From an uncultured Fibrobacteraceae bacterium (GTDB lineage: Bacteria; Krumholzibacteriota; Krumholzibacteriia; LZORAL124-64-63), in contig CAZLHO010000005.1 in the NCBI GenBank assembly GCA_964559455.1, forward strand, positions 31,679 through 95,678: a stretch of DNA of 64,000 nucleotides, in the 5' to 3' direction. The notes under the pieces were generated by a model, which did not search any database, was not told where the DNA came from, and saw only the letters and a program-made list of their open reading frames with translations. Below are positions 27,520-43,551 of this stretch, piece after piece. Position 1 is the first letter of the stretch, and each line of letters begins with the position of its first letter. A program made the translations under genes and the position numbers.

Positions 27520-30500
27520 TCAGCGCACCAGCGTGACCGACCCCACCGCCCGTCCCCCGGCCCACTCCCCGACAGCCAGGTAGAGCCCAGAGGCCGCCGC
27601 GCGGCCCCCGTCGTCGCGCCCGTCCCAGAACGCGCGCTGGGCGCCGCCGGGCCGCCAGCCCTCGACCAGCGTGCGCACCACGCGGCCGCGCATGTCGACG
27701 ATGCGCAGGACGACCCGCGTGTCGCGGGGCAGTTCGTAGCCGATGACCGTGCCGGGGTTGGCCGGATTGGGCGCCACCGACAGGCGGCGCGGCGCCAGGG
27801 GCGCGGACGCGTCGTCGCGCACGGCCGTGACCGCCGCCGCTCCCAGGTCCACCTCGCGGTCGGGCCAGTCGGTCACGCTCACGGCCGAGAAGACCTGCAC
27901 CTCGCTCAGGCCCACGCCGCGGCCGGCCAGGGGCAGGATGTCCAGGCGGATCCGATGCGCCGCGACGGGGGCCTCGAGCACCAGCCAGTAGCCGTGGGCC
28001 AGGCGACCTTCCGCGGGCAGGTCGGAGAATTCGTCCGTGCGCCCGTAGCCCCAGTCCAGGTGGTCCCCCGGCGGGCTCCAGACGTCGTCGTGCTGGATCA
28101 CGCCCATTCCCGTGGCCGCGCCCTCGGCGTCCAGGGCGTAGGCCGCGATGGTGCCGGCGTGGCCGAAGTCGGCGTTGGGCTGGTGCGAGGTGACGCGCAG
28201 GGCCCGCACGGTCCGCTCGCCGCCCAGATCGACGGTCACCGTCAGGGGAGCGTCGCCCTCCCAGTACGCCGCCTGGCCCTGCACGTAGACCGAGGTCGTG
28301 TAGGTGGTGGGCGGGATGATCACGCCGTCGGTGAGCTCGCGGCCGTCGGTGTCCGGATTGACGGGCGCTGACAGGCGCGACACGGTGTAGGGCCGTCCGA
28401 GCGCCAGGTCGTCGATCCAGTCGGCCTCGATCCGCACCTTGTCGAGGCCGGCCGCGGGACCCACGTCGACGCCGTCGCCGTAGCCCGCCGGCGCACCGGG
28501 TTCGGCCAGCCGCGTCCGCACCCACTGCATGGTCGGGTCCCGATAGCCGGCCACGTTCAGGTCCCAGATCTCGTCGGTCGTGGTGACCACGCGGGTGTGC
28601 GTGCGGACGACGTCGCCGTCGAGGCGGTGTTCGGTCCAGCACCAGGTCACCTCCACCGGCGCGAACGCGGGATCGTGGGCGGCGTGGTGCACCTGCAGGA
28701 GCGCCTCCTGGATGCCCGTGCCCTGATACGACGCGTCCACCGAGCTCAGCACGTCGTACCGCATCCAGATCGTGCGCTGTCCGGCGGGCGCGGGACCGGG
28801 CGTGGCGAAGAGGCGGGCGTCCCAGGTGGGCGCCGCGCCCGCGTCGAAGACGGCCGCCGTCGTGAAGTCCAGGCCGTCCCACGAGTACGCCAGTTCCACC
28901 CGGTCGCCGGCGCCGGCGAAGCGGGTGATGAAGCTGCCGCCGAAGGTGGCGCCGAGCAGGTCGGCGGGGGTCTCGACGCGCCAGGTCGCGCTGCCCGGCA
29001 CGCCGGCCAGGGTGGGCACCACGATGGCCGACGAATAGCCCAGATACTCGGTCCGCGAGGTGAGGCCGGCATGGTCGGCGGCCGACACGGTCCAGTGGTG
29101 CTCGGCCCCGGCGTGCAGGGTGGGCTGCAGGGTCAGGGTCTCCAGCGGCGGGCCGGCGGCGAAGCGCACCCGGTTGGCGCCGCGCTGCAGGCGCGGCAGC
29201 GTCAGGCTGTTGACCTGGGTCACGGCCTCGACGCGCAACTCGTCCAGGCCGCAGTCCTGGCGGGTGTCGTCCGGCACGATGCGCACCCGCACCAGCGCCT
29301 CGAAGGCGCCGCCGACCAGGCTCGCCGGCAGCTCGTGCCAGGACGCGAAGGCGCCGGCCGCGGGCGCCGCCACCGGGATCCAGGTGCAACCGGCGTTGCG
29401 GGAGATGTCGAGCATCACCTGATCGCCGTCGCCGCGCCGGCCGGCCAGGTAGACCCGGGCCGAGGTCAGCACGTTGGCGGCGTCGATCTTCAGCACCGCG
29501 TCGGCCAGGGTCACGCCCGGCCCCGGGCGCAGAACCGGCCCCCCGCCGCCGTCCTGGTCGCGGTGGACCAACCCCGTGAGTTGGTGCCAGCCGCCCCGAA
29601 CATCCGCCGCCGCGAAGTCGGGGGCGATCTCCCAGCGGCCGTTGCCGCGGATGCTGGTCGGATAGTACGAGTCGTTCGGATCGAGGCCCTTGGAGGTCAG
29701 GCGCGCGTACTCCGGCCCCGCCCCCAGAGGCTCCCAGTAACGGGTGTAGGCGTGTCCGGGGTGCAGGTGCAGGCGGTTGCGGCAGCCGCGCCTCACGTGA
29801 GTGAAGGCCTCCTGCACGCTGAAGCCGGAGATGTAGGAGTCGGCGCCGTTGCGCAGGGTGCGCGAGAAGGGCACCGGGTTGTCGGCGGCCTTCCGGTAGC
29901 CGCTGGGATAGCCCAGTTCCAGGGGATGGTCGGGGTCGGGCGGGTTGGTCATGCACTCGGGGGCCGCGTGATAGAGGTAGAGGTGGCCGGGCTCGTCGGC
30001 CGCCCCGCCCCAGAGGTCGGAAAGGGCGCAGCTCCCGGGCGCGGCGATGTCGGCGCAGGAGGCGATGGCGCCGTCGTGCCGGCGGGCGTAGACCACCATG
30101 GAGGCGTCGAACATATGCCAGGTCGCGCCGGCGTCCCAGGACACCTCGGCGACGGTGTGGTCGCCCAGCTCGACGTAGCGGTGCCGCCAGTCGCCGCCCA
30201 TGACGTCGACGAAGGCGGTGAGGAAGGCCGCCATGTAGCCGCAGAAGGTGTTGGGGTAGCTGCCGTAGAAGCGGATCGGATCCCAGAGCGGAGCGCCGTC
30301 CTCGAAGGTCGCGCTGGTCTGAAGGTGGCCGCGAACCATCCACCGCCAGAAGGCGACGGCCTGGTCCTCGGGATCGTCCCAGACGCTCGTGGCGGTGGCC
30401 GCGAAATCCTCGATGGACACGTAGTCGGGCGAGCTGTCGGTGTAGAGGTGGATGTCGTGCACCGAAGCATGGGCGCAGGCAGCGCCGAGCAGCGTCAGGA

Positions 30501-30531
30501 CGAGCAGGAGTTGAACGACGGATCGCAACAT
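27520..30531 (-). CDS. Secreted multidomain protein: transglutaminase-like Cys-His-Asp core, discoidin-like domain, FlgD CTD
   Basis: Signal MLRSVVQLLLVLTLLGAACAHA; TFCGY / DHTVAEV / WHMFDAS; LTVTVDLGGERTVRAL...GLSEVQVF; PNPANP...WDGRDDGGR. Confidence 0.75.
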   Translation of the reverse strand: MLRSVVQLLLVLTLLGAACAHASVHDIHLYTDSSPDYVSIEDFAATATSVWDDPEDQAVAFWRWMVRGHLQTSATFEDGAPLWDPIRFYGSYPNTFCGYMAAFLTAFVDVMGGDWRHRYVELGDHTVAEVSWDAGATWHMFDASMVVYARRHDGAIASCADIAAPGSCALSDLWGGAADEPGHLYLYHAAPECMTNPPDPDHPLELGYPSGYRKAADNPVPFSRTLRNGADSYISGFSVQEAFTHVRRGCRNRLHLHPGHAYTRYWEPLGAGPEYARLTSKGLDPNDSYYPTSIRGNGRWEIAPDFAAADVRGGWHQLTGLVHRDQDGGGGPVLRPGPGVTLADAVLKIDAANVLTSARVYLAGRRGDGDQVMLDISRNAGCTWIPVAAPAAGAFASWHELPASLVGGAFEALVRVRIVPDDTRQDCGLDELRVEAVTQVNSLTLPRLQRGANRVRFAAGPPLETLTLQPTLHAGAEHHWTVSAADHAGLTSRTEYLGYSSAIVVPTLAGVPGSATWRVETPADLLGATFGGSFITRFAGAGDRVELAYSWDGLDFTTAAVFDAGAAPTWDARLFATPGPAPAGQRTIWMRYDVLSSVDASYQGTGIQEALLQVHHAAHDPAFAPVEVTWCWTEHRLDGDVVRTHTRVVTTTDEIWDLNVAGYRDPTMQWVRTRLAEPGAPAGYGDGVDVGPAAGLDKVRIEADWIDDLALGRPYTVSRLSAPVNPDTDGRELTDGVIIPPTTYTTSVYVQGQAAYWEGDAPLTVTVDLGGERTVRALRVTSHQPNADFGHAGTIAAYALDAEGAATGMGVIQHDDVWSPPGDHLDWGYGRTDEFSDLPAEGRLAHGYWLVLEAPVAAHRIRLDILPLAGRGVGLSEVQVFSAVSVTDWPDREVDLGAAAVTAVRDDASAPLAPRRLSVAPNPANPGTVIGYELPRDTRVVLRIVDMRGRVVRTLVEGWRPGGAQRAFWDGRDDGGRAAASGLYLAVGEWAGGRAVGSVTLVR

Positions 30532-30729
30532 GATGACAGCCCCCCCGCCAACGTAGACACGGCGGGGCGGTCGTGTCAATCGGGCCGGCGGGGCCTGGCG
30601 GGAAGGCGCGCGCGAACCGGCACAGGCCGGAGGTCCGATCCGACAAGGGCGACAGGCACGACGGGAATCTGCTATCATCAACCGGCGCGATACCCGGCCT
30701 CGGCACCCGAACGCGAAGGAATCCCCGAC

Positions 30730-31815
30730 ATGCGCGCCTGGAACGCTCTCCTGCCGGCACTGGTCATCCCGGTCTTCGCCCTTGCCGCCCCCTGTCTCGC
30801 CGACACGCTGAACGTCCCCGCCGACCATCCGGACATCGCCTCCGCCCTGGCCGTCGCGGTCGCGGGCGACGAGGTCGTCGTCGCCGCGGACACCTACCCG
30901 GAGCACGACCTGATCCTGCCCTCGGGCGTCGTGCTGCGCGGCGCGACCGGAGACCCGGCCGACGTGGTCATCGACGGCGAACGGGCCGGTCGTTGCGTGT
31001 ATGGCGCCGACCTCGACGCGGCGACGCGGATCGAGGCCTTGACCCTGTCCAACGGCCTGCCCGCCCTGGGCTCCACGCCTCACAACTCATGGGGAGCCGG
31101 CCTGATGGTGGACGGCGGAGCGCTCACCGTGGCGAACTGCGTGTTCACGGGCAACGAGACGGCCGTCGGCGGCGGGGCCTACGTCATCGGGACGGGGACG
31201 CCCGCCTTCATCGACTGCGTCTTCGACGGGAACGAGGCCTCCGAGTCGGCCGGGCTGCTCCTGCGCGGGACCTGCGACCCCCTCGTGCAGGACTGCGTTT
31301 TCCGCAACGGCGACCGGACCATGGTCGGCGGCGGCCTGACCTGGGGGGGATCGGGGCACGCTCTGATCGAGGGCTGCACCGTGGAGGACAACATCGTGCT
31401 GGAGACCGGCGGCGGGGTGGAGATCATCGGCGCCGGCGCCCTGGCGACGCTGCGCGACTGCGTGATCCGCCGCAACTCCGCCTCTCTGGGCGCGGGCGGG
31501 TTGTTCGTCGGCAACTACGGCCACGCGATCCTCGAGCTCTGCGCGATCACCGGGAACAGCTCCGATAATGCCGGCGGCGGCGTCATCCTGGACTTCGGGG
31601 CGGTCCTGGAGGCCTTCGACACCACGATCCTGGACAACACGGCGCCGACCGCGCCGGACGGCCTGGTCGGCTCGTCCGCGTCGGCGACCCTGACCTGCTG
31701 CATCATCGCCCTGGACGCCTGGCGGGACTTCGGCTCGCTGGTCGTGGAGAACGACGGCTGCCCCATAGCGGCCGAGACCGCCACCTGGGGCGAGGTCAAG
31801 TCGCTCTTCAAGTGA
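30730..31815 (+). CDS. Secreted right-handed parallel beta-helix repeat protein with C-terminal WGxVKxLFK tag
   Basis: Signal peptide; LNVPADHPDIASAL; repeated C(V/T)F.GN.A..GGG; ends TATWGEVKSLFK. Confidence 0.85.
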   Translation: MRAWNALLPALVIPVFALAAPCLADTLNVPADHPDIASALAVAVAGDEVVVAADTYPEHDLILPSGVVLRGATGDPADVVIDGERAGRCVYGADLDAATRIEALTLSNGLPALGSTPHNSWGAGLMVDGGALTVANCVFTGNETAVGGGAYVIGTGTPAFIDCVFDGNEASESAGLLLRGTCDPLVQDCVFRNGDRTMVGGGLTWGGSGHALIEGCTVEDNIVLETGGGVEIIGAGALATLRDCVIRRNSASLGAGGLFVGNYGHAILELCAITGNSSDNAGGGVILDFGAVLEAFDTTILDNTAPTAPDGLVGSSASATLTCCIIALDAWRDFGSLVVENDGCPIAAETATWGEVKSLFK

Positions 31816-31825
31816 TCATGGACCG

Positions 31826-31857
31826 GATAAAGGGCCGCCCCGACGATGAGGCGGCCC
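31826..31857 (-). terminator. Intrinsic terminator-like hairpin between convergent genes
   Basis: GGGCCGCC-N10-GGCGGCCC followed by TTTAT on the minus strand. Confidence 0.5.
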
Positions 31858-31879
31858 CGGCATCGCAATTCAGCCACCG

Positions 31880-32845
31880 CTACTTCACCAGCACCATCCG
31901 CTTCGTCTCGCTGTAGCCGCCGGTATCGAGGCGATAGAAGTAGGCCCCGCCGGCCACCCGCCGGCCTGCGTCGTCCCGGCCGTTCCAGACGGTCTCGTGG
32001 CGCCCCTGGTCCTGCACATCGCCGCCGATCAGGACTCTCACCAGGCGACCGGACACGTCGAAAACGCGGAGCCACACGCCCCTCCTCTCCGGGAGGCTGA
32101 AGGAAATCGTCGTCTGGGGATTGAAGGGATTGGGATAGGCGTCGTGCAGGTCGGCGTTCCGGCTGCCGCCCGACGGAACACCCGTCAGCCCTCCCCCTTG
32201 CTGGCAATTGTCGATCAGGCCGTCGTTGTTCCAATCCCAATCCGGATGAGCCGCCAGGTCGACCGCGTCGCTGATTCCGTTGCCGTTGCAATCGTCGACG
32301 TCGCCCTCGAATGACAGGCGGACTTCAATAAAGCTGCCCCCGAATTCCAACCACAAGGTAGAGATTGTCCAACAGTCCAGATCAATGGGCGTCAGCGATG
32401 CTCCTAGGTGCCAACACCCGGGAGGGGATTCAGAACAGCTTTGAAGAATTACTGTGATAGACCCGGTATTCATTCCAATATCAATTTGAAGTTCCTCAAA
32501 ATAATCGCCTGTTTCTGAGTCAAATAAGTTTCGAGCATGGATAAAGAAACTGGCATGGGGATCAAAACTATCGATCCCACCGACGCTTACCGACACGCTG
32601 CCGATGTATCTGTAATCAGCACAGGATCCCACCACCACGGCTTCCACACAATAGGCAAGCATGGATAGCTCCAAGCTGTCTCCCCATTGCACTCCGCTGT
32701 AATAACCGCCGTCATCACATTCTACATTTTCAACCACGCCACCAATCTTGTCGATGAAGACCGACCCCACGCCCTGGGCGCCCGCGATAGTCGCGGCACT
32801 GATCACGCAGAATATCATCAGCGCATAGACGGTGCTCATTCGCAT
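31880..32845 (-). CDS. Secreted protein with low-GC passenger, DCNGNGISD Ca-binding-like motif and FlgD CTD
   Basis: Signal MRMSTVYALMIFCVISAATIAGA; DCNGNGISDAVD...DWNNDGLIDNCQ; YPNPFNP...WNGRDDAGR. Confidence 0.8.
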   Translation of the reverse strand: MRMSTVYALMIFCVISAATIAGAQGVGSVFIDKIGGVVENVECDDGGYYSGVQWGDSLELSMLAYCVEAVVVGSCADYRYIGSVSVSVGGIDSFDPHASFFIHARNLFDSETGDYFEELQIDIGMNTGSITVILQSCSESPPGCWHLGASLTPIDLDCWTISTLWLEFGGSFIEVRLSFEGDVDDCNGNGISDAVDLAAHPDWDWNNDGLIDNCQQGGGLTGVPSGGSRNADLHDAYPNPFNPQTTISFSLPERRGVWLRVFDVSGRLVRVLIGGDVQDQGRHETVWNGRDDAGRRVAGGAYFYRLDTGGYSETKRMVLVK

Positions 32846-33018
32846 CGCGAACACCTGCCCTTTCCGACTGATCAAGTTGTTCCCCGGAGCTCGTATGCCG
32901 ACCGATTCATCTGCCCGGATCGATACGATTGGAGTATGGCTCGTCAATTGTAGCATATCCTGATGTTCGAATTCATCATGATCGCGCTCGTTCCGATCGG
33001 CGGCCGAGCCGTCACGAG

Positions 33019-33170
33019 GCGGCGCAGATCGTGAGGGAGCCCTACCTCATCTTCCCGGGGAATGCCGAAGAGATGCAGCTGCACTGGCAGCTGGACGACA
33101 CCGCCGACTGCGCCGTGGAGTGAGGCTTCGACGCCGACTACTCCCTGGGCTCCGCACCGACGGGCGCATC
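33019..33170 (+). pseudogene. Gene fragment resembling the FN3-like N-terminus of purple-acid-phosphatase-type metallophosphoesterases, with an in-frame TGA
   Basis: Reads AAQIVREPYLIFPGNAEEMQLHWQLDDTADCAVE*GFDADYSLGS; TGA at 33121 sits where W would be expected. Family assignment is from memory; boundaries approximate. Confidence 0.5.
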
Positions 33171-33212
33171 CCGACGCCTGGTGCGGCCACGAGAGTGGAT
33201 GATCGCCGCCCC

Positions 33213-34916
33213 TCAGTCCCCGTTCCCGCCGATCTCCACGATCCCCACGTCGTCGAGCGACGCGGCGAAAGCCAGGGCCGCGGCGTCGCCCAGGCCGGGG
33301 TTGTCCGCGATCTCCAGCCTGTTCGTGACCTCGGTCAGGCCGGACAGGCCGGCCAGAGACGCCAGGACGTCGTTCCCTTCGATGATCAGGTTGTCGGCGC
33401 GCACCAGCGTCTCCAGGCCGGCCAGGCCGACGAGGGCGGCGTTGTATCGCACGCGCAGGTCCCGGATCTCCTCGAGATCGGCGATGCCGGTCAGGTTGAT
33501 CAATCCGGAATTCTGGGTGACGTTCAGGTTCTCGAGCCCCGGCCGCGCGCCCAGGCCGTCGAGGCTCGTCAGCGCCGGACAGCGGATCAGGTACAGGTTC
33601 GAGACGATCGTCCCCGCCCCCAGGCCCGCCAGCGAATCCAGCGCCTCGTTGCCGTCGAGGGTCAGCCGGTCGATCGCGGCCACGCCCTCCAGGCCGTTCA
33701 GGCTGTGCAGCGACGGGTTGCCCACGACCTGCACCTGTTCCAGCGATCCCACCGCGCCCAGTCCCGTGAAGTCGATGAAGGATGCATTATTCCGGACGGA
33801 CAGGCTCTTCAGCTGCGGCAGGTCGCCCAGGCCGGCCAGCGATGCGAGTGCGGGGTTGCCGTCGATCGCGAGTGAGGTCAGGCCGGACAGGTCGCCCAGC
33901 CCCGCCAGGGACTCCAGGGCCGCGTTTCCGTAGATGGTGAGCTGCCCGGAGACAGCGATCCCCTCCAGGCCTGCGAGCGACTCCAGGTGACCCTGGTGGT
34001 TGATCGTCAGGTTGGAAAGTGGAGCGCCGACGACCAGCCCCGACAGGTCCGGCAGCCGGCTGGGGCCGCCCAGGCTGAGCTGGGCCAGATCCGGCAAGGG
34101 ATCGAGTCCCTGCAGCGAAGCCAGGGCTTCGTTCGCAAAGAGACCCAGGGTCCGCAGGCTCGCGAGGTTCTCCAGGCGCCCCAGCGCGGTCAAGGAACGG
34201 TTGCTGCCGACCTGGAGATTCTCGAGCGCCGGCATGGGCCCCAGATTCCCCAGGGTCGTCAGGTTGTCGCAATGATCGACCGTCATCTGCCGCAAGGAGC
34301 CGAGGTCGCGCAGGCCGAGGCCGTCGACGAGGCCGTCCTCGTCCCTGACGGACAAGGAGACCAGCGCCGGCAGCGGTCCCAGGCCGGCGAGGCTCGGCAG
34401 CCGGCCGTTGAGGCCGACGGTCAGTTGCGCCAGCCCGGAAAGGTCGCCGATCCCCGCGCAGTCCTCGAGTTGCCCGTTGCGGCTCAGCATCATCTGCCGC
34501 ACGGCGACGAGCCCGCCCAGGCCGTCGAGGGAGCCCAGCGCGGCGTTGCCGACGATGCTGATGCGGTCGGCCTCCCGCAGCTTCTCCAGCCCCCGCAGGT
34601 TCCGGAGCTGCGTGCCGCAGATCTCGAGCTCGCCGACGCTGGTCAGCATCGCCAGCGGCGTCAGGGAGCGGATCGCGCCCGCGCTGTCCGGGTGGATGAT
34701 CAACGAGCCGGGGATCTCCGTGATCCCGCGCAGCAGCTCCAGTTCGGACTGGTCGGCGACGATCACGTGCCCGCCGTAGCCGGCGACGCCCCACTGCTGC
34801 ACCGAGCAGGGATCCGAATCCGAGCAGCCGGCGACCATCAGGAACGCTCCCGCCGCCAGGCAGAGCGCCGCCGTCAAGATGCCGGAGCGGCGGCGATGCT
34901 TGAAGACACGGTTCAT
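33213..34916 (-). CDS. Leucine-rich-repeat (L-domain-like) lipoprotein 1
   Basis: Lipobox LMVAGC; about 20 repeats of LxSLxGLxxLxxLxxLxIxxN; ends IVEIGGNGD. Confidence 0.88.
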   Translation of the reverse strand: MNRVFKHRRRSGILTAALCLAAGAFLMVAGCSDSDPCSVQQWGVAGYGGHVIVADQSELELLRGITEIPGSLIIHPDSAGAIRSLTPLAMLTSVGELEICGTQLRNLRGLEKLREADRISIVGNAALGSLDGLGGLVAVRQMMLSRNGQLEDCAGIGDLSGLAQLTVGLNGRLPSLAGLGPLPALVSLSVRDEDGLVDGLGLRDLGSLRQMTVDHCDNLTTLGNLGPMPALENLQVGSNRSLTALGRLENLASLRTLGLFANEALASLQGLDPLPDLAQLSLGGPSRLPDLSGLVVGAPLSNLTINHQGHLESLAGLEGIAVSGQLTIYGNAALESLAGLGDLSGLTSLAIDGNPALASLAGLGDLPQLKSLSVRNNASFIDFTGLGAVGSLEQVQVVGNPSLHSLNGLEGVAAIDRLTLDGNEALDSLAGLGAGTIVSNLYLIRCPALTSLDGLGARPGLENLNVTQNSGLINLTGIADLEEIRDLRVRYNAALVGLAGLETLVRADNLIIEGNDVLASLAGLSGLTEVTNRLEIADNPGLGDAAALAFAASLDDVGIVEIGGNGD

Positions 34917-34917
34917 C

Positions 34918-36642
34918 TCAGTCCCCGTTTCCGCCGATGGTGATCGTTCCCGTCACGTCCAGCCCGCCGGCGAAGGCGAAGGCCGCGGCGTTCCCCAGCG
35001 CGGTGTTGCTGGTGATCCGGAGGTTGCCGACGCGCTGCAGCCCGGCCAGCCCGTCGAGGGAGGCCAGCGCCGCGTTGTCCCAGATCGTGAGGTGGTCGTC
35101 GAGCGCGGTGATCGCCTCCAGCCCCTGCAGCCTCGTCAGGGTCGGGCAATCGCTGATGTCGACGCCCGCCAGGTTCGGCGTCGCGCCCAGCCCCTGCAGG
35201 TCGACGATCGCGGTCAGATCGCGGACCCACAGGGCTGTCAGGCCGGGCAGATCGCCCAGGCCGGCCAGGCTCGGCAGGGATTGCAGGCTGCTGATCGTCA
35301 GCGTCTCCAGGGACGGCAGGGGCCCGAGTCCGGACAGCGACAGCAGGTCGTGGCAATAGCGGATCCCGAGTTGCGCCAAGTTGTCGAGGTCGGCGAGCCC
35401 GGACAGGTCCGTCAGCGCGAGGCCGCTGAGGTAGAGGGTGCGCAGCGCGGGCAGGCCGCCGAGGCCCGCCAGCGAGGCCAGTTGGGGGTCGCTCTGGAGG
35501 CTCAGTTCCTCGAGCCCGGTCAGCTCGGACGCTCCCGCCAGGCTCGTCAGGCCGTCGTTGGAATAGAGCGTCAACGTCGCGAGCCCCGGCATGGCGCCGA
35601 GCCCGTCCAGCGAGGTCAAGGCAGGGCATTCCTCGATCCGGAGGTCGCCGAGCCCGCCGAGGTAGCCGGCCCCCTGCAGGGACCTCAGGGAATCGCAGTG
35701 ACTGATCCAGAGGGCGGCCAGTTCGACCTGTCCGCCCAGCCCGGCCAGGCTGGAGAGTCCGTCGGCCTGGATGATGTCCAGCCCCTGCAGGGCGGGGACG
35801 TCGCCGAGGCCGCTGAAGTCCTCGAAGACCGGGCTCCCCTCCACGATCAACGCCTCCAGGCCCGGCAGGTCGCCCAGGCCCTCCAGGTTCTTCAGCACCG
35901 GGTTGACCCGCAGCGCCAGCTGCCTGAGCTTCGGCATCGCTGGCCAGCCCGCGAAGGACGTGAATTCCGATCCCCCGGAGAGGCTCAGCCAGTCCAGCTC
36001 CGTCAGCTCGCCCAGGCCGGAGATGCTCGTGAATCCGCCCACGATCATCGTCTCCAGGACGACGGCGTGTTCGAGCCGGGAGAAGTCCTCCAGGAGATCG
36101 CAGTCGTTGATCTCGGCGATCAGGAGCGCCGACAGGTCGCCGGACGGGCCCAGGTCGCGCAGCGCCGTGAGCCGCCACAACCGCATCGTCGTCAGGGCCG
36201 GGAGGTCGGCGGGCAGATCCACCACGACGAGAGCCGGCAGATCCTGAAGCATGAGGAACTGCAGCGACGCGGCGCCGCCAAGACCGGCGAGGCCGGCCAG
36301 CGAGGCGCAGTCGTAGATCTCGAGCCGCTCGAGTTGCTCGAGGTTCTCGAGGCCGGCGAGGCTGCTGATCGAAAGTCCCTGCAGGTAGAGCCTCTGGACG
36401 CTGCGCAGCGAGGCCAGGGCCGAGAGGTCGGTCACGTCCTCGCCCCTGATCGCCAGCGTGCCCTCGATCTCGGTAATCCCGGCCAATTGATCGACCTGCT
36501 CCTGCCCCTCCACGCCGATCTCGCCCGGATAGACGGAGAGAGTGCAGGGGTTGGAGTCGTCGTCGCAGCCGATGAAGAGGAGCAGAATGCCGAGAAGAAG
36601 GAATATCGTCAGCAATGGTCGGGCCGATGGTGCCAAGCTCAA
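34918..36642 (-). CDS. Leucine-rich-repeat (L-domain-like) lipoprotein 2
   Basis: TTG start 7 nt after GGAGG; lipobox LFIGC; same 22-23 aa repeat; ends TITIGGNGD. Confidence 0.85.
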   Translation of the reverse strand: MSLAPSARPLLTIFLLLGILLLFIGCDDDSNPCTLSVYPGEIGVEGQEQVDQLAGITEIEGTLAIRGEDVTDLSALASLRSVQRLYLQGLSISSLAGLENLEQLERLEIYDCASLAGLAGLGGAASLQFLMLQDLPALVVVDLPADLPALTTMRLWRLTALRDLGPSGDLSALLIAEINDCDLLEDFSRLEHAVVLETMIVGGFTSISGLGELTELDWLSLSGGSEFTSFAGWPAMPKLRQLALRVNPVLKNLEGLGDLPGLEALIVEGSPVFEDFSGLGDVPALQGLDIIQADGLSSLAGLGGQVELAALWISHCDSLRSLQGAGYLGGLGDLRIEECPALTSLDGLGAMPGLATLTLYSNDGLTSLAGASELTGLEELSLQSDPQLASLAGLGGLPALRTLYLSGLALTDLSGLADLDNLAQLGIRYCHDLLSLSGLGPLPSLETLTISSLQSLPSLAGLGDLPGLTALWVRDLTAIVDLQGLGATPNLAGVDISDCPTLTRLQGLEAITALDDHLTIWDNAALASLDGLAGLQRVGNLRITSNTALGNAAAFAFAGGLDVTGTITIGGNGD

Positions 36643-36903
36643 TCGAAGGCCTCCCGATGTTCGGGCCTGGACGGACTCGCGCCGCCCCATCTGGTGCCGA
36701 CAGCGAATCCGTACCCTAGCACGGGTCGGATGGGCAGACAACGCTCCCGGGCGGGATCGGGGCGGCGCGGAGTTGCGAGTTCGATAGTGCATTTCTATCG
36801 TGTATTCGATTTGTCATTATCACTACGGTCCTCAGGGATGAGCTCGCTCCACAACCGTATGCGGCCAGGGACGCGCCGGGGCTGGACTCTGAAAGGGACC
36901 GAC

Positions 36904-37647
36904 ATGAAGAACCGCCTTCGACTCGGCTTCGGCCTTGTCCTGGCCTGCCTGCTGACGGCCGGCCACATCACGGCCCAGGATCGGATCACCATCATCCGCG
37001 AGCGCGACATGGCCGACCCGGCCTTTCGCGCCTCCCTCCTCTCGTACCGGGGCGGCGACTGCGACCTCGGCAATCCCCTGCCCTGGGACATGTGCAACGC
37101 GCTCGAGGTCGAGGACGGCTACTACCTGGAGCAGCCGGCGGAGACCTGCTCCTGCGTCCCCGGCCTCCACGTCTACGAGCTGAGGCATTTGTTCTACGTC
37201 TGCAACCTGCTGATCCCCGAGTGCGAGGAAGCCGGCGGCGGATTCCTGTCCGTCCACGGGGAGCTGATGGAGGCGGATTGGGATCCGCAGATCGAATGCT
37301 GGGTCCCGGGGCAGGTCCTCTGCAGCACGCCCGGGATGACCCTCGAGGTGCCGGTCTCCTGCCCCGAATGCATGGAGCTGGACAACGGCTTCATCGACTG
37401 GATCGGCGACCTGTCGAACTGCGACTGCGCCTTCCCGGGGTACCCCTACTTCCTCCACGTGCACGTCGAGGGCGGCAATCCGACGACCTGCACCCAGCAT
37501 GAGATGCCCTTCGACGACGCTCCGCCGCAGTGCGCCGCCGCGGGCGAGGCGCACAACGTGTTCCTGACCGGCAGCGCCGACTGCTGCGGGATACCGATCC
37601 CCGCCGTCGAACCAACATGGGGATCGATCAAGAGCTGGTTCCGCTAG
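36904..37647 (+). CDS. Secreted Cys-rich hypothetical protein with C-terminal WGxIKxWFR tag
   Basis: Signal MKNRLRLGFGLVLACLLTAGHITA; 16 Cys in the mature part; ends VEPTWGSIKSWFR. Confidence 0.8.
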   Translation: MKNRLRLGFGLVLACLLTAGHITAQDRITIIRERDMADPAFRASLLSYRGGDCDLGNPLPWDMCNALEVEDGYYLEQPAETCSCVPGLHVYELRHLFYVCNLLIPECEEAGGGFLSVHGELMEADWDPQIECWVPGQVLCSTPGMTLEVPVSCPECMELDNGFIDWIGDLSNCDCAFPGYPYFLHVHVEGGNPTTCTQHEMPFDDAPPQCAAAGEAHNVFLTGSADCCGIPIPAVEPTWGSIKSWFR

Positions 37648-38237
37648 TCGTCGTCAGGCGTCCGCTCCCGGTTCTCCCGCCACTCGTTCAGCGCGCGCAT
37701 CCTCTGCCGGAACTTGTGCGGGGCCTCGAAGGGCGCCGGGCCGACCTCGCGCGAGGCCGCCAGCACCGCCTCCGCGGCCTCGGGCAGGCCGTTGTCGCCG
37801 TAGTGGCTGACGGTCTCGACGGCGTAGCCCGCGGCGACCGCCAGCACCGAGTAGTTGCGCCCGTTGACGAAGAGGTAGCCCAGGGTCCGACCGTAGCCGT
37901 CGGTCTCGGCGGCGCGCAGGAGCTCCACGGATTCGGCCATGGCGAAGACGCCCTCGGCGAAGGCCGTCGCCTCGCGCCCGTAGGGCTGGTCGTCGCGCCA
38001 GCCCATGGAGTGATGGGCGACCTCGGGCGTGTCGATGCCCAGGATGCGCACCCGCTCGGTGTCCTCGTCCCCCCAGAGGATGACGACGGTGTCGCCGTCG
38101 CCCACGTCGACCAGGGCCGGATCGACGGGAACCCGCTCGAGGCTGGCGCGGGACTGGGCGCGGTCCTGGGCGCCGACGGTCGCGGCGGCCAGCAGCAGGG
38201 CGATGACGGCGAGAGTGCGGACTCGGGTCGGGAGCAT
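37644..38237 (-). CDS. Secreted thermonuclease (SNase-like)
   Basis: Signal peptide; VGDGDTV, VRILGIDTPE, DGYGRTLGY, NYSVLAVAAGYA. Confidence 0.92.
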   Translation of the reverse strand: MLPTRVRTLAVIALLLAAATVGAQDRAQSRASLERVPVDPALVDVGDGDTVVILWGDEDTERVRILGIDTPEVAHHSMGWRDDQPYGREATAFAEGVFAMAESVELLRAAETDGYGRTLGYLFVNGRNYSVLAVAAGYAVETVSHYGDNGLPEAAEAVLAASREVGPAPFEAPHKFRQRMRALNEWRENRERTPDDD

Positions 38238-38278
38238 GGGAACCTCACCTCGTTATTCGCCGCTCGTTTCGCGGCGCC

Positions 38279-38865
38279 CTACAGTTCCGTCAGCGGCGCC
38301 TTCAGAGCGACCCGGTCCAGGGCGACCCGGTCCTCGATCTCGAGGAAATCCCCCCAGATCCTGATCTCGCGGATGCTGGCCAGGGACATCCAGATGTCGG
38401 CGTCCGTCGCCGCAGCGCCGTCCCAGCGGTACCACCGGCCGGGGACGGTGCCGTCGTCGCCCGTCTGCACCCCCGCGGCCAGGTTGACGACGAAGAGCGT
38501 CGGCGCCGGGTTCGGGCGGATGTTGCCCGGGCGGAACCGGGGATCCGGGACGTGGTCGGCGTTCGCCGGACGGTACACCAGGTTCCCGTTCTCGCTGGTC
38601 AGCACGACGAAGTCCGCGATGCTCGCCTGCCATTGGGGCGGGTCGTAGATATCCCAGGGGTCGGGAGAGTACCAGAGGGAGTACTCCAACGTGCCTCCGG
38701 CGTAGGGGGTCTTGTTGCCCAGGAATTTGCTGGGCGCGGAGAACTCCAGGCCGGTCATCCACGAATCGATCGGGGACACGGCGCCCTCGGGTCGTCGTCG
38801 CTGCAGCCGGCGGCGAACGCCAGCGCCAAGACGAGGAGCATCATCAGGATCGGGAACGTTTTCAT
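38279..38865 (-). pseudogene. Laminin-B (domain IV)-like lipoprotein split by a 1-nt frameshift
   Basis: MKTFPILMMLLVLALAFAAGCSDDDP, then in another frame EGAVSPIDSW...FSAPSKFLGNK..YAGGTLEYSL...IREIRIWGDF. Adding one base to the G3 run at 38789-38791 joins the frames. Confidence 0.7.
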
Positions 38866-38924
38866 CTGCCCATCCCTCATGGTTGTAGTGCCGATTACCG
38901 GATAGCGATCTGCCGTATCCCGCA

Positions 38925-39527
38925 CTAGCGGTACAGGTTCTTGATTCCGCCCCAATTCGCCGTATCGCTGATCACGGGACCGTTCATATTGATACCGGCC
39001 ACCCACGCAGGATAACATGGGAGGTTGTAACATGGCACCGACGGCTGCAGGTAGATATCGACTGCGCCCGAAGAACAGACCAGCCCGTCCCCTTCGGCCG
39101 ACGATTCCAGATACATCGTGATCGGCGCTCCGGTCAGCACGTCGACCGATAGCTCCGCGAGGACAATCGCCGACGACAACGGCAACGGCGTCGCAAGGCT
39201 GACGTCGAAATGCACCAAGAAGTCCGGTCCATCGCCATGGGCGTTGACCCCTCCGCCCCGTATCGTGGCTTCCACCGGGACCTCGCAGGACACCCCGCCG
39301 CGCCAAGCATCCACGCCGCCGGCCCCATCATACCTCGTCGCAATCAGATACCCGACTACCGAAGCCGGCGGAACTACACCGACCGCGTTCCCGATCGCCT
39401 CTTCATCGAAATAGATCCCCACCGAATTCGGATAAGGATCCGTTTGCGCACAAGCGTCGCCGCCGGCAGCCGCGACAAGACAACCCGCAGCCAGCACCAC
39501 GATGGCGCAACCGGCAATTCTCTTCAA
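38925..39527 (-). CDS. Secreted hypothetical beta-rich protein with C-terminal WGxIKxLYR tag
   Basis: AGGAGG 6 nt before TTG 39527; signal peptide; NSVGIYFDEEA; ends TANWGGIKNLYR. Confidence 0.78.
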   Translation of the reverse strand: MKRIAGCAIVVLAAGCLVAAAGGDACAQTDPYPNSVGIYFDEEAIGNAVGVVPPASVVGYLIATRYDGAGGVDAWRGGVSCEVPVEATIRGGGVNAHGDGPDFLVHFDVSLATPLPLSSAIVLAELSVDVLTGAPITMYLESSAEGDGLVCSSGAVDIYLQPSVPCYNLPCYPAWVAGINMNGPVISDTANWGGIKNLYR

Positions 39528-40769: not shown

Positions 40770-41930
40770 TCATCTCAAGGGCTTCAGGTCCTCCAGGAGA
40801 CGGGAGATCGATACCGCCCGGATCTTCTCGGCAAGAGGAAAGCTGTTCTCTCCGGCATGGATCACATCCAGGCTGTCAAGATGGAGATCGGCCAAGGCGG
40901 TCTGCATGGATCTAGTCACCGCAGGGGAGGTCGTTCGCTTGATCTCGAATCCCCGCCGTGATCTCCCTCTCACTACGAGGAGGTCCAGTTCGGCACCCGC
41001 GTGCGTTGCCCAGAAATGGCATTCCTCCGGCTGTGCATAGAGATGATGGATGATTTCACCGAGAACGAATCCCTCCCAGGAAGCACCAACCTTGGGATGG
41101 GCTTCCAGATCGGACATCGTCTTCAAGCCGAGAAGGGTGTGAAGAAGGCCCGGATCCGCGATGTAGATCTTCGGAGCCTTGACCTGCCGCTTCTTCAGAT
41201 TCTCATGCCAGGGAAGCAGCTGGCGGATCGCCAGTGCGGAAGTCAGAACGTCCAGATAATTGCGGATGGTCGTATCCGCGACTCCGAAGGATCGTGCTAA
41301 TTCAGATGCGTTCCATGTCTGCCCGTGATAGTGCGCCAGCATGGTCCAGAAACGTCGGAGCGTTGCAGCCTTGATATTGATCCCCAGCTGGGGCAAGTCC
41401 CTCTCCAGGAAAGACTGGATGAAACCCCTGCGCCATTCGTCACTGCCGAGATGGGACTTCGCCAGATAGGACCGGGGAAAACCACCGCGCAACCAGAGGC
41501 GGCCGTGGTGTTCGATGCCCGTCTCCTCCAGGGATAATCCATCCAGGGCATGGAACAGGATGCGCCCGGCCAGGGATTCCGAACCCTGGCGCAGCAGCTC
41601 GGGAGAAGCGCTTCCCAGCACCAGGAAACGTGCGGGAGAACGTGGGCGATCTACGAGTACCCGGAGCACCGGGAACAGATCAGGAGCGCGCTGCACCTCG
41701 TCGATCACGACCAGACCCTTCAGGCCCTTCAGTGCGAGCATGGGATCGGAGAGCCTGGCCAGATCTTCCGGGTTTTCCAGATCGAAATAACCGCCCTGTC
41801 CGGCGGTCTGCGCGAACAGCATCCGCGCGAGCGTGGTCTTTCCCACCTGGCGGGCGCCCACGATCCCCACGACACGATGCCGCTGGAGAAGCCCCTGGAT
41901 TCGCCGGAGATGCGCTGGTCGATCAATCAT
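40770..41930 (-). CDS. AAA+ ATPase with DUF4143 (COG1373-like)
   Basis: Walker A GARQVGKT, Walker B VVIDEVQ, LGS, GGFP, KIYIADPGL, ELDLL..FEIK. Confidence 0.92.
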   Translation of the reverse strand: MIDRPAHLRRIQGLLQRHRVVGIVGARQVGKTTLARMLFAQTAGQGGYFDLENPEDLARLSDPMLALKGLKGLVVIDEVQRAPDLFPVLRVLVDRPRSPARFLVLGSASPELLRQGSESLAGRILFHALDGLSLEETGIEHHGRLWLRGGFPRSYLAKSHLGSDEWRRGFIQSFLERDLPQLGINIKAATLRRFWTMLAHYHGQTWNASELARSFGVADTTIRNYLDVLTSALAIRQLLPWHENLKKRQVKAPKIYIADPGLLHTLLGLKTMSDLEAHPKVGASWEGFVLGEIIHHLYAQPEECHFWATHAGAELDLLVVRGRSRRGFEIKRTTSPAVTRSMQTALADLHLDSLDVIHAGENSFPLAEKIRAVSISRLLEDLKPLR

Positions 41931-42031
41931 GCAGCAGATGCTATCTTGAAATCTCGGTGCAGTCAACAGAGATTTCAAGGAGTGGCGGCAGCCCATTCCG
42001 CACCCCGGAGAATCCCCCCAGGATTCCCGAG

Positions 42032-42077
42032 AACACAAACGCCCCGCCTGCAGCCGCTTAAACGGCGAGTCGGGGCG
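42032..42077 (-). terminator. Terminator-like hairpin downstream of the tRNA remnant
   Basis: CGCCCCG...CGGGGCG stem with an inner GCCG/CGGC hairpin, followed by TTTGTGTT on the minus strand. Confidence 0.5.
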
Positions 42078-42125
42078 ACCCTTGCGTCAACTGATTCAGG
42101 GAGATTCGTTCGTAGGCGTAAAATT

Positions 42126-42143
42126 TGGCTCCCCGGGCGAGAC
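42126..42143 (-). mobile_element. att-like remnant: 18-nt tRNA 3' end, probably tRNA-Asn
   Basis: Minus strand GT-CTCGC-CCGGGGA-G-CCA fits T-loop end, T-stem, acceptor 3' strand, discriminator G and CCA; the rest of the tRNA is absent. Confidence 0.55.
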
Positions 42144-42190
42144 GCTCCTGGGAAGATAATCAGAGAATCCCCTTGCGGACGACCCGGTCC

Positions 42191-43414
42191 TCAGATCGCC
42201 CCCACGGGGATGCTCACGACGCCCTCGGCGAGCGGAAGGGAGGACTCCGCAAGGCAGACCACTCCCCCCGGGCCCACGATCTTGCCGAGCTTCTCGAGAA
42301 CGCCGAAGTGGGCGGCCGCCCTTCGATCCGGCGCAGCCGTCTTCTTGAATTCCAGCGGATGGACCGTGTCGCCCTGGACGATCAGCAGGTCGATCTCCTT
42401 CTGGTCCTTGTCGCGATAGTAGTAGAACGGCGCTCGCTTGCCGTTATGCCACCAGCTCTTCAGCAGCTCAGCCAGGATCCAGGTCTCGAGCACTGCACCG
42501 GAGGCCGCGCCGGCTTCGAGGCTCTCCGGACTCGCCCACTCGGTCAGCCACGAGCAGAGCCCAGTGTCCAGGAAGTAGAGCTTGGGCCTCTTGACGAGCC
42601 GTTTCGTCACGTTCGAGTGGTAAGGCTCGAGCAGGAAAACGATGCCCGACGTCTCGAGGACGGAGAGCCAGCTCTTGGCCGTGTTGGGGGCGACGTCGGC
42701 GTCGCGCGCCAGCTCGGCGATGTTGAGGATCTGGGCCGTCCGGGCCGCGCAGGCTCGAACGAAGCGCAGGAAGGCCGCCTCGTCGCCGACCCTGGCCAGA
42801 TCCCGCACGTCCCGCTGCAGGTAGGTCTGGACGTAGGAGCTGTAGTACAGGTCCCGGTCCATGCCCGGGTCCGCGGCCAGCGCAGGATAGGCGCCCCTCC
42901 ACATGATGCCGTAAAGGTCCGTGAGGGCCAGGGGCGCCATGGCCTCCAGCCTCGGGCCCAGCACCTCGGGCGTCGGCAGGAAGGGACGGGCGTCGATCTC
43001 CTCGCGGTCCCTCTCGCGCCGCGAGAGCCCCAACAGCTTGAGGATGGCCACCCGGCCCGCCAGCGACTCCGATACCTCGTTCATCAGGTGGAACTGCTGC
43101 GAACCGGTCAGCCAGAAACGGCCCGGCGTCCCGTCCTCGTCCACCGACATCTTGATCAGAGGAAGGAGCCCCGGGGCATACTGGATCTCGTCGATGATCA
43201 CCGGCCCCGGAAAGCGCTGCATGAAGAGCGCCGGATCGCTTCTGGCCAGTTCCAGGATCCTCGGGTCGTCCAGGCTCGCATAGGCGCGCTCAGCCCCGCC
43301 GATCTGCCTCAGGAACGTGGTCTTGCCGACCTGGCGTGCGCCCGTGACCAGCATCACCGGGAAATGGCCGGAAGCCTCGAGGAATTGCTTCTCCAGGGTT
43401 CTGCTGAGATACAC
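42191..43414 (-). CDS. AAA+ ATPase with DUF4143 (COG1373-like)
   Basis: GARQVGKT, VIIDEIQ, LTGSQ, GAYP, KLYFLDTGL, EIDLLI..LEFK. Confidence 0.93.
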   Translation of the reverse strand: MYLSRTLEKQFLEASGHFPVMLVTGARQVGKTTFLRQIGGAERAYASLDDPRILELARSDPALFMQRFPGPVIIDEIQYAPGLLPLIKMSVDEDGTPGRFWLTGSQQFHLMNEVSESLAGRVAILKLLGLSRRERDREEIDARPFLPTPEVLGPRLEAMAPLALTDLYGIMWRGAYPALAADPGMDRDLYYSSYVQTYLQRDVRDLARVGDEAAFLRFVRACAARTAQILNIAELARDADVAPNTAKSWLSVLETSGIVFLLEPYHSNVTKRLVKRPKLYFLDTGLCSWLTEWASPESLEAGAASGAVLETWILAELLKSWWHNGKRAPFYYYRDKDQKEIDLLIVQGDTVHPLEFKKTAAPDRRAAAHFGVLEKLGKIVGPGGVVCLAESSLPLAEGVVSIPVGAI

Positions 43415-43551
43415 GACCTCCCCCTTCGTCCAGAATGCATTACGACTGCATTATAGACGATTCCCTGGCCCCGTCAACGACAATCGTCCAATCTGCAGCG
43501 CCGCTGCATAATGGACGATGTCATCGCTAGCTTATTTGATTTCGAACGCTT

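Follow-up and report, generated by a model that had tools for sequence, protein, structure and literature searches.

Three secreted proteins with a common C-terminal tail

Three open reading frames (ORFs) in a stretch of 64,000 nucleotides from an uncultured Fibrobacteraceae bacterium (contig CAZLHO010000005.1; the whole stretch is called the window below) ended in the same nine-residue tail, WGx[IV]Kx[LW][FY][KR], and the tryptophan lay exactly nine residues before the stop in each. The first, P1 (30730-31815, + strand), encoded a secreted right-handed β-helix protein of 361 amino acids with a signal peptide at approximately residues 1-24 and a Pfam Beta_helix match (1.9e-16). It ended in ...TATWGEVKSLFK*, also given as ...DGCPIAAETATWGEVKSLFK, and its C-terminal module, C344-PIAAETAT-WGEVKSLFK361, occupied 31759-31812 (+), with the core at 31786-31812 and the stop codon at 31813-31815. 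P2 (36904-37647, +) was a secreted Cys-rich protein of 247 amino acids with no Pfam or NCBIfam match, ending in ...EPTWGSIKSWFR*, also given as ...CCGIPIPAVEPTWGSIKSWFR; its module, CCGIPIPAVEPT-WGSIKSWFR, was located at 37582-37644 (+), with the core at 37618-37644 and the stop at 37645-37647. P3 (38925-39545, − strand), a secreted protein of 206 amino acids, or 200 from an alternative start at 39527 as in P0001, belonged to a superfamily of approximately 200 amino acids and ended in ...TANWGGIKNLYR*, also given as ...NGPVISDTANWGGIKNLYR. Its module, NGPVISDTAN-WGGIKNLYR, was located at 38928-38984 (−), with the core at 38928-38954 and the stop at 38925-38927.

All three proteins had Sec-type signal peptides, readable in the sequence as a hydrophobic core between a basic N-terminus and an AxA-like cleavage site. 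The Beta_helix domain of P1 was the sole Pfam match among them, no FlgD_ig or Por_Secre_tail domain was detected on any of the three in Pfam or NCBIfam at E<=1, and BLASTP found no mutual match among their bodies. A first-pass annotation of the window had described these tails as lying on exported proteins with unrelated bodies and no FlgD C-terminal domain (CTD), with the tryptophan nine residues from the stop; translation, BLASTP and Pfam bore out each of these points, the annotated tail coordinates including the stop codon.

The motif WGx[IV]K occurred three times in the six-frame translation of the window, in every case at the end of one of these ORFs. From the residue frequencies of the window, approximately 3e-7 matches were expected at ORF ends and 8e-5 anywhere, and 100 windows simulated with a first-order Markov model contained no tail match; these expected frequencies and simulations ruled out a chance origin. 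The residues upstream of the core were also alike in P1-P3, following [GC]-P-[IV]-x(2-4)-[ED]-x-[TA]-x-W. Since this similarity reached approximately nine residues upstream of the tryptophan, the unit comprised about 18 residues rather than nine.

Conservation in homologues and across genomes

The ending W-[GD]-x-[IV]-K-x-L-[YF]-R was present in all eight P3 homologues, the most distant of them at 40-43% identity. The large P3 superfamily consisted of secreted proteins of about 200 amino acids with a mature N-terminus DPxPxx[IV]GIYFD, a G[FW]E motif in the middle region and the ending ...INGxCPVxxExxTWGxxKSLYR; its genes often stood in tandem arrays (for example L024:96-4109, L080:4220-7581 and L097:443-3063). 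No Pfam model covered this superfamily, and a profile search of the PDB found no relative. Thirty orthologues of P1 at 57-72% identity carried a looser form of the tail, in which W353, C344 and K357 were invariant or nearly so, while the Gly, Ile and Leu positions varied. In 32 P1 orthologues, C344 and W353 showed no variation. The tail was thus kept in orthologues while the bodies drifted to 40-57% identity. The nearest named P1 orthologues came from metagenome-assembled genomes (MAGs) of Krumholzibacteriia, and a near-identical syntenic contig, L001, came from a mud metagenome. P2 was the representative of its own 50%-identity cluster (P0142) and had no detectable family.

One protein from a 2.5-kb contig in ENA (P0009) was identical to P1 except for a leucine in place of the invariant tail tryptophan (window positions 31786-31788), ending in ...TATLGEVKSLFK; this was either a natural variant or a sequencing error. 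Distant homologues of P1 (P0043, P0046, P0047, P0050 and P0051, some of them named Phycisphaerae) carried a dockerin-like end instead of the tail, ...D[LV]N.DG.[VI]N..D......WG..CP (...LLxxWGxxCP), which is a different C-terminal module on a P1-related body.

One genome per GTDB species was scanned for the DNA pattern TGGGGNNNNATCAAGNNNYTNTWYMRNTRR, and at least 119 loci with the tail were found. A true stop followed 131 of the 132 scan matches, and nearly all of them closed ORFs of 100-1400 amino acids. Three clear off-targets (Isosphaeraceae, Ningiella and Methanosarcinales) lacked the stop, the ORF or the upstream [ST]. The pattern fixed the codons ATC for Ile and AAG for Lys, so AT-rich lineages were under-sampled. 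Among the matches listed, the named records comprised 35 Eisenbacteria, 9 Krumholzibacteriota, 7 Gemmatimonadota, 5 Latescibacterota, 3 Fibrobacteraceae, 4 Ignavibacteria/Kapaibacteria and one Udaeobacter, a Verrucomicrobiota MAG outside the Fibrobacteres-Chlorobi-Bacteroidetes (FCB) group; about 50 other listed loci were labelled only as "bacterium" MAGs. The first-pass annotation had mentioned similar tails in FCB candidate phyla and in Poribacteria. The named taxa agreed with the former, and no Poribacteria were found among the matches listed. Tails were common rather than rare, and several loci held three to seven tail genes (seven within 8 kb of L044, four in L024 and three in L080), with at least 5-9 in single genomes among the matches listed. 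A scan of viral contigs in IMG/VR returned just four tail-like ends, on contigs L122-L125, which may be proviruses or misclassified bacterial DNA; the one on L124, ...MTWGGIKAFYR, belonged to a protein with a signal peptide. When 120 aligned tails were used as the query of a word-indexed protein search, no match was returned, nine-residue tails having too few exact common words for it.

The consensus module was C-x-x-P-V-E-x-x-[ST]-W-G-x-I-K-[AS]-L-Y-R-stop, approximately 18 residues, and the logo of the scan loci read C(-18) P x P V E x s [TS](-10) W G x I K [AS] L Y R. In these loci, which were chosen by a pattern fixing W, G, I and K, the residues W, G and K were conserved at about 100% and I, L, Y and R at 79-92%. 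Positions that the pattern left free were still conserved: [ST] at -10 (91%), E at -13 (50%), P at -15 (45%) and A/S/G at -4 (77%). The last residue was Arg in 79% and Lys in about 9%, so that the ...LFK of P1 represented the minority form, and K at -5 and R at -1 were not exchanged between the two positions. All synonymous codons were in use for the Gly, Leu and Arg of the tail, which indicated that selection acts on the peptide.

Terminal position of the tail

In 821 kb of fetched loci, the core occurred 139 times, 135 of them exactly at the stop and three with one or two extra residues; the remaining occurrence was the Isosphaeraceae off-target. Relaxed patterns yielded 15 more tail genes at the exact spacing between the tryptophan and the end, and no tail genes when either segment was one residue longer. 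Because the loci had been picked with the stop in the pattern, an unanchored hidden Markov model (HMM) search was run as an independent test. A 21-column profile built only from the window proteins and their homologues was searched against 1.84 billion representative proteins at E<=0.001 and gave 109 matches, which ended at the last residue of the protein in 81, within one residue of it in 92 and within seven in 103. P2 itself (P0142) was recovered at residues 227-247 of 247. Both approaches showed that the tails are terminal, as the first-pass annotation had held.

The non-terminal exceptions were three unrelated repeat proteins and members of a single lipoprotein family. In this family (P0096, P0097, P0150, P0132, P0056, P0126, P0072, P0088 and P0070; L044:1646-6972), the sequence ...LWRQ[IV]DRPR... 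preceded the tail, and the motif followed every repeated domain internally, stood in tandem at the C-terminal end, or came right behind the lipobox as well as at the end. The seven tail genes of L044 were lipoprotein-family genes in a row. The top match of the tail HMM, P0055 (692 amino acids), resembled a tape-measure protein and had ...VTKTWGEIKSAFDVAGW in each of its five 40-residue repeats; its context was unrelated, with internal copies and no signal peptide.

Stop-codon usage also set the tail genes apart. In loci L003-L121, the 117 tail genes ended in TAG (63), TAA (27) and TGA (27), and the 324 control ORFs of the same loci in TGA (170), TAG (130) and TAA (24). The leaky TGA stop was thus rarer in the tail genes (23% vs 52%, Fisher p=2.5e-8), which may reflect selection for exact termination or high expression.

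Export and unrelated bodies of the carriers

The same signal-peptide heuristic was applied to tail ORFs and control ORFs. A signal-peptide-like N-terminus was found in 111 of 113 tail ORFs and in 101 of 209 controls; with a stricter cut-off, the numbers were 97/113 and 66/209 (p=1e-21). The tail therefore co-occurred with signal peptides and was not a feature of cytoplasmic proteins. Most carriers looked like signal-peptidase-I substrates, and a few had lipoboxes.

After removal of the signal peptide and the last 20 residues, 109 carrier bodies fell into 64 BLASTP clusters, and the 67 longer HMM matches fell into 20. The 64 clusters ruled out a single homologous family as the explanation, and no Pfam or NCBIfam family was common to the 105 carriers scanned. 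The matched body families included choice-of-anchor W/E/J, ScyF-like NHL (a PEP-CTERM family), DNRLRE, LTD, CHRD, NosD/β-helix and cupredoxins, together with the MAM region of rhombosortase- and myxosortase-dependent M36 peptidases. These modules are of the kinds that elsewhere precede other C-terminal sorting signals, and the tail occupies the architectural position of such signals. Taken with the conservation described above, the three tails of the window are copies of a modular, transferable C-terminal tag under purifying selection, which is confined to Sec-exported proteins of FCB-group candidate phyla and is found on hundreds of them.

The tail was found mostly on small proteins of about 200-400 amino acids, and the largest carrier families measured 180-250. 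Small size, the tandem arrays of L024 (4 genes), L080 (3) and L044 (7), and the N-terminal (IGIYFD) and C-terminal elements that these families have in common would suit a peptide that binds a domain of another secreted protein, a scaffold or the next subunit, and so builds complexes or fibres. The penultimate aromatic residue, the high sequence specificity and the tandem and internal domain-plus-motif repeats of one family point the same way. We nevertheless regard such an assembly role as quite unlikely: the same tail stood on many folds (β-helix, NHL, cupredoxin and MAM), which a general tag explains better, it was predicted to be helical and not a donor strand, and no candidate scaffold was found.

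It is also conceivable that the tail has no targeting role and is either a structural cap that recurs among these proteins or a mobile, exon-like end that recombination has spread and that serves no function. Internal copies do exist, and the evidence on the tail comes from sequence analysis and structure prediction. Against this stood the purifying selection on the amino acids despite synonymous codon turnover, the retention of the tail in orthologues to about 40% identity, its confinement to proteins with signal peptides and the avoidance of TGA stops; moreover, the tail cannot cap the fold because a flexible linker parts it from the body. A tail without any targeting function is scarcely credible.

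Predicted structure of the tail

The AlphaFold2 model of P1 (32 orthologues) had a predicted local distance difference test (pLDDT) score of 91.5 and showed the β-helix to approximately residue 340, followed by an unstructured linker (341-352) and a short helix at 353-359 (WGEVKSL). Foldseek searches with this model found polysaccharide epimerases and lyases, tailspikes and Rhombotarget A. The model of P3, built from nine sequences, was unusable (pLDDT 45). On a helical wheel, the W, I, L and Y of the tail fell on one face with K and R flanking it and small residues opposite. A helix N-cap would be compatible with the [ST] before the tryptophan and with an acidic or small residue that is frequent at +3. 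For consensus tails, the hydrophobic moment was 0.5-0.65 at 100-110 degrees, and the Wimley-White interfacial energy was about -1.5 kcal/mol.

These properties are consistent with a self-sufficient in-plane membrane anchor, in which a short amphipathic helix would lie on the periplasm-facing phospholipid surface of the inner or the outer membrane and need no machinery. The helix was predicted on a flexible linker, its moment and interfacial energy were in the range computed for the MinD, FtsA and PBP5 anchors, short C-terminal extensions and internal copies were tolerated, and no machinery gene was found near the tail genes. However, the sequence was far more conserved than a physico-chemical anchor needs, even in view of the selection of loci by a pattern fixing W, G, I and K. 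In amphipathicity, the arrangement did not significantly exceed permutations of its residues; an anchor of nine residues, only four of them hydrophobic, would hold proteins of 200-1400 amino acids weakly; and the distance to the end was rigid. On balance, an anchor of this kind appears unlikely.

The known anchors themselves are similar in part. The C-terminal helices of PBP5 and PBP6 of E. coli anchor these proteins to the membrane, as do the membrane-targeting sequences of MinD and FtsA in the cytoplasm, and all resemble the predicted helix of the tail in being short C-terminal helices with an aromatic/aliphatic face, Lys/Arg flanks and a similar moment. We take ...IKSFF in B. subtilis MinD and ...SWIKRL in FtsA to be local likenesses to the tail. 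These anchors are family-specific and loosely conserved, whereas the tail was near-identical across more than 60 families and several phyla at a fixed distance from the end.

Comparison with known C-terminal signals

Isolated tails had no match in Pfam or NCBIfam at E<=10, and no model in Pfam (2025) or NCBIfam (June 2026) covered the tail, among them the curated CTERM models of NCBIfam (PEP-CTERM, GlyGly-CTERM, MYXO-CTERM and others). An existing family model was thus ruled out as the explanation, in line with the novelty claimed at first pass. Nothing relevant to the motif, or to secretion in the phyla concerned, was found in the literature searched. The tail differs in defining features from the CTD of the type IX secretion system (T9SS), sortase-type signals, the outer-membrane β-signal, the Lpp linkage and dockerins.

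The type A CTD of T9SS (TIGR04183/PF18962; FlgD_ig-like) resembles the tail in standing at the extreme C-terminus of Sec-exported FCB proteins with many unrelated bodies, in occurring in the same genomes and neighbourhoods, and in its hydrophobic-hydrophobic-basic end. In contrast to the tail of 9-18 residues, which was predicted to be helical, this CTD is a folded β-sandwich of 70-100 residues that is recognised by HMMs. The C-terminal region of P1 was modelled by AlphaFold2 as a linker and a seven-residue helix rather than a β-sandwich, and when families were ranked by the number of matches in the 105 tail proteins, neither PF18962 (T9SS type A) nor PF13860 (FlgD_ig) came within the first 25.

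Sortase-type signals (LPXTG, PEP-CTERM/exosortase, GlyGly-CTERM/rhombosortase, MYXO-CTERM and PGF-CTERM) are likewise short, lineage-restricted C-terminal tags on unrelated secreted proteins, with the same "choice-of-anchor" bodies, and the tail also has a small signature (P-V-E) before a more hydrophobic stretch and a basic end. Unlike the tail, they depend on a transmembrane helix of approximately 20 residues with a basic cluster behind it, and on a matching transpeptidase in the membrane; the tail contains no membrane-spanning segment because a lysine lies in the middle of a core of only nine residues. Dockerins and GC-type dockerins are C-terminal docking modules on secreted enzymes, and dockerin-like ends were found on the distant P1 homologues in Phycisphaerae. 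Dockerins are Ca-binding, duplicated EF-hand-like modules of about 60-70 residues, whereas the tail is far shorter and unrelated in sequence, and no Pfam dockerin model matched the tails of the tail proteins. The outer-membrane β-signal differs in ending with an aromatic residue, usually Phe, on a β-barrel; the tail ends in R (79%) or K (9%), and the carrier bodies were β-helices, propellers and sandwiches, not barrels. The eukaryotic KDEL/HDEL and PTS1 (-SKL) signals are similar to the tail in having few conserved C-terminal residues that are transferable and presumably read by a receptor, although they belong to another domain of life and other compartments. We know of no description of such a short, linear C-terminal signal on exported proteins of bacteria.

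In the Lpp linkage, the C-terminal lysine (...YRK) is cross-linked to peptidoglycan. The near-invariant Lys at -5 and the basic last residue of the tail would allow covalent attachment through the lysine in the manner of Lpp, or a protease tag for turnover or maturation. The C25 cysteine-peptidase genes adjacent to tail genes in several loci would fit the latter, and the copies inside multi-domain lipoproteins could be sites of cleavage. Lpp-type linkage uses a terminal Lys, whereas the tail ended in Arg in 79% and in Lys in approximately 9%; the C25 adjacency was not specific (see below), and a degradation tag on more than 60 families across phyla would have no obvious rationale. Either role is highly improbable.

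Neighbouring genes and the search for machinery

The neighbours of the tail genes were analysed by clustering all ORFs of at least 100 amino acids from the 119 loci. The recurrent neighbours were only FlgD-CTD proteins, response regulators, kinases, ABC ATPases and tetratricopeptide repeat proteins. The housekeeping genes RluD/RuvX and YceG beside the P3-like arrays were considered as machinery and rejected as synteny within one lineage. No obvious candidate for tail machinery and no T9SS core gene were seen in the window.

Genes for FlgD-CTD proteins were present in about 40% of the loci (8-kb blocks) and at approximately one per 13 kb in the window. Genes of the Peptidase_C25 (gingipain/PorU) family adjoined tail genes in eight loci (L010:4043-7999, L022:1856-5308, L024:5638-7998, L032:1198-3588, L056:3-3245, L075:1666-5451, L103:1241-4675 and L108:601-4047), usually downstream on the same strand, and Pfam analysis of L010, L024 and L075 showed that some of them also carried Propeptide_C25 or an FlgD_ig CTD. 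C25 was rejected as a specific partner of the tail, since C25 genes made up about 20% of the FlgD-CTD genes, which were themselves present in about 40% of the blocks; the adjacency is probably a by-product of FlgD-CTD gene abundance.

The same neighbourhoods bear on the idea that the tail is a minimal T9SS-coupled signal, which would mimic the last strand of the FlgD/T9SS CTD (...K-x-V-L-[LV]-[KR]) and use the same outer-membrane translocon or attachment complex. Among the matches listed, the named carriers belonged almost entirely to FCB-group lineages, which are holders of T9SS. Tail genes lay amid abundant FlgD_ig-CTD genes in the window and in the loci, C25 genes adjoined them in eight loci, and both kinds of end are hydrophobic-hydrophobic-basic with a Lys five to six residues upstream. 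We consider this coupling very unlikely, given that the folded, Ig-like CTD has 70-100 residues and the tail is short, predicted to be helical and without a match to any CTD model, that the co-location was accounted for by the abundance of FlgD-CTD genes and the share of C25 among them, and that the window contained no visible T9SS core gene.

A model for the tail as an envelope-localisation tag

C-terminal tags decide which exported proteins reach the surface in diderm and monoderm bacteria. In our best reading, the tail would be a modular envelope-localisation tag standing where related proteins have T9SS, PEP-CTERM or dockerin ends. The tag would be composed of a Cys that probably closes the body domain, a flexible linker rich in Pro, Val and Glu, and the nine-residue core at or near the C-terminus. 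The carrier would be exported by Sec and its signal peptide removed, after which the core, [ST]-W-G-x-[IV]-K-[AS]-L-[YF]-[RK], may fold into a helix of 2.5 turns with a W/I/L/Y face and Lys/Arg flanks. This helix would dock on a conserved component of the envelope, most likely a dedicated receptor protein and not bare lipid, and docking would set the place of the protein in the envelope, the tag standing in for the FlgD/T9SS CTD, PEP-CTERM, GlyGly-CTERM or dockerin of related proteins. A specific partner is favoured over bare lipid because seven of the nine positions were near-invariant across unrelated carriers and phyla, because K at -5 and R at -1 were used distinctly, and because the distance to the end was fixed. 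We give an even chance to this mechanism, in which a helix on a flexible tether docks to a conserved partner in the envelope and the final location of the protein is set thereby.

Several observations weigh against this model. No conserved neighbour that could be a receptor or processing enzyme was found near the tail genes in the 119 loci analysed. About a quarter of the HMM matches had one to seven extra residues past the core, and the lipoprotein family kept conserved internal or tandem copies of the motif beside the terminal one, so recognition of a free carboxylate cannot be obligatory. The pLDDT of the P1 end region containing the helix was moderate (approximately 50-73). About 19% of permutations of the same residues equalled the amphipathicity of the tail, although AlphaFold2 did predict, at P1 353-359, the helix proposed at first pass. 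In addition, the fixed ATC AAG codons skewed the taxonomic picture to GC-rich genomes.

A more far-reaching form of the model, which we hold to be possible but rather less probable, is that the tail is a recognition peptide, comparable with KDEL or PTS1, for an undiscovered system of envelope sorting or attachment in FCB-group candidate phyla. After Sec export it would be read by a dedicated receptor or translocon, working alongside T9SS on many proteins that are mostly small and have no assigned function. The first-pass annotation had likewise proposed a second sorting or anchoring pathway. The widespread terminal tag on exported, unrelated proteins agreed in part with that proposal, but no machinery was found beside the tail genes. 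LPXTG, PEP-CTERM, the T9SS CTD and GlyGly-CTERM are precedents, as each of these tags, once recognised, led to a new machine. If a receptor exists, the tail would be the first short linear C-terminal sorting peptide for exported bacterial proteins. In phyla with almost no cultured members, the tail makes visible a large group of proteins that had escaped notice, and it provides an annotation handle through an anchored HMM, a cargo set for phylogenetic profiling and a transferable peptide of 18 residues.

Other genes of the window

The window encoded a TonB-dependent receptor and ExbB/ExbD, which indicated that the organism is a diderm. It also encoded GH94 and GH1 enzymes, a sugar ABC transporter, sucrose-metabolism genes, two leucine-rich repeat (LRR) paralogues, a secreted SNase and a transposase, as well as several proteins with an FlgD_ig CTD, including a C1 peptidase; an S8 peptidase had no FlgD_ig match. 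A large secreted protein with an FlgD_ig-type (T9SS-like) CTD was encoded at 27520-31083 (−), divergent from P1, as assigned by Pfam and by the syntenic gene in L001; the longest ORF listed there overlapped the start of P1. Convergent with P1, the gene at 31880-32956 (−) encoded a secreted protein of 321-358 amino acids with an FlgD_ig/Por_Secre_tail CTD, assigned by Pfam from the syntenic gene of L001/L002 and ending in ...YFYRLDTGGYSETKRMVLVK. A secreted SNase-like gene (37644-38237, −) was convergent with P2, its stop overlapping the P2 stop region. Two AAA_14/DUF4143 ATPase genes and an rve_3 integrase/transposase gene (40770-44660) flanked the secreted-protein cluster, and the same arrangement was present in L001. 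The two LRR paralogues (567 and approximately 574-624 amino acids) were adjacent at 33213-34916 and 34918-36792 (−) and had no Pfam match on record; both ended in ...[IT]IGGNGD, a second common C-terminal ending in the same gene cluster.

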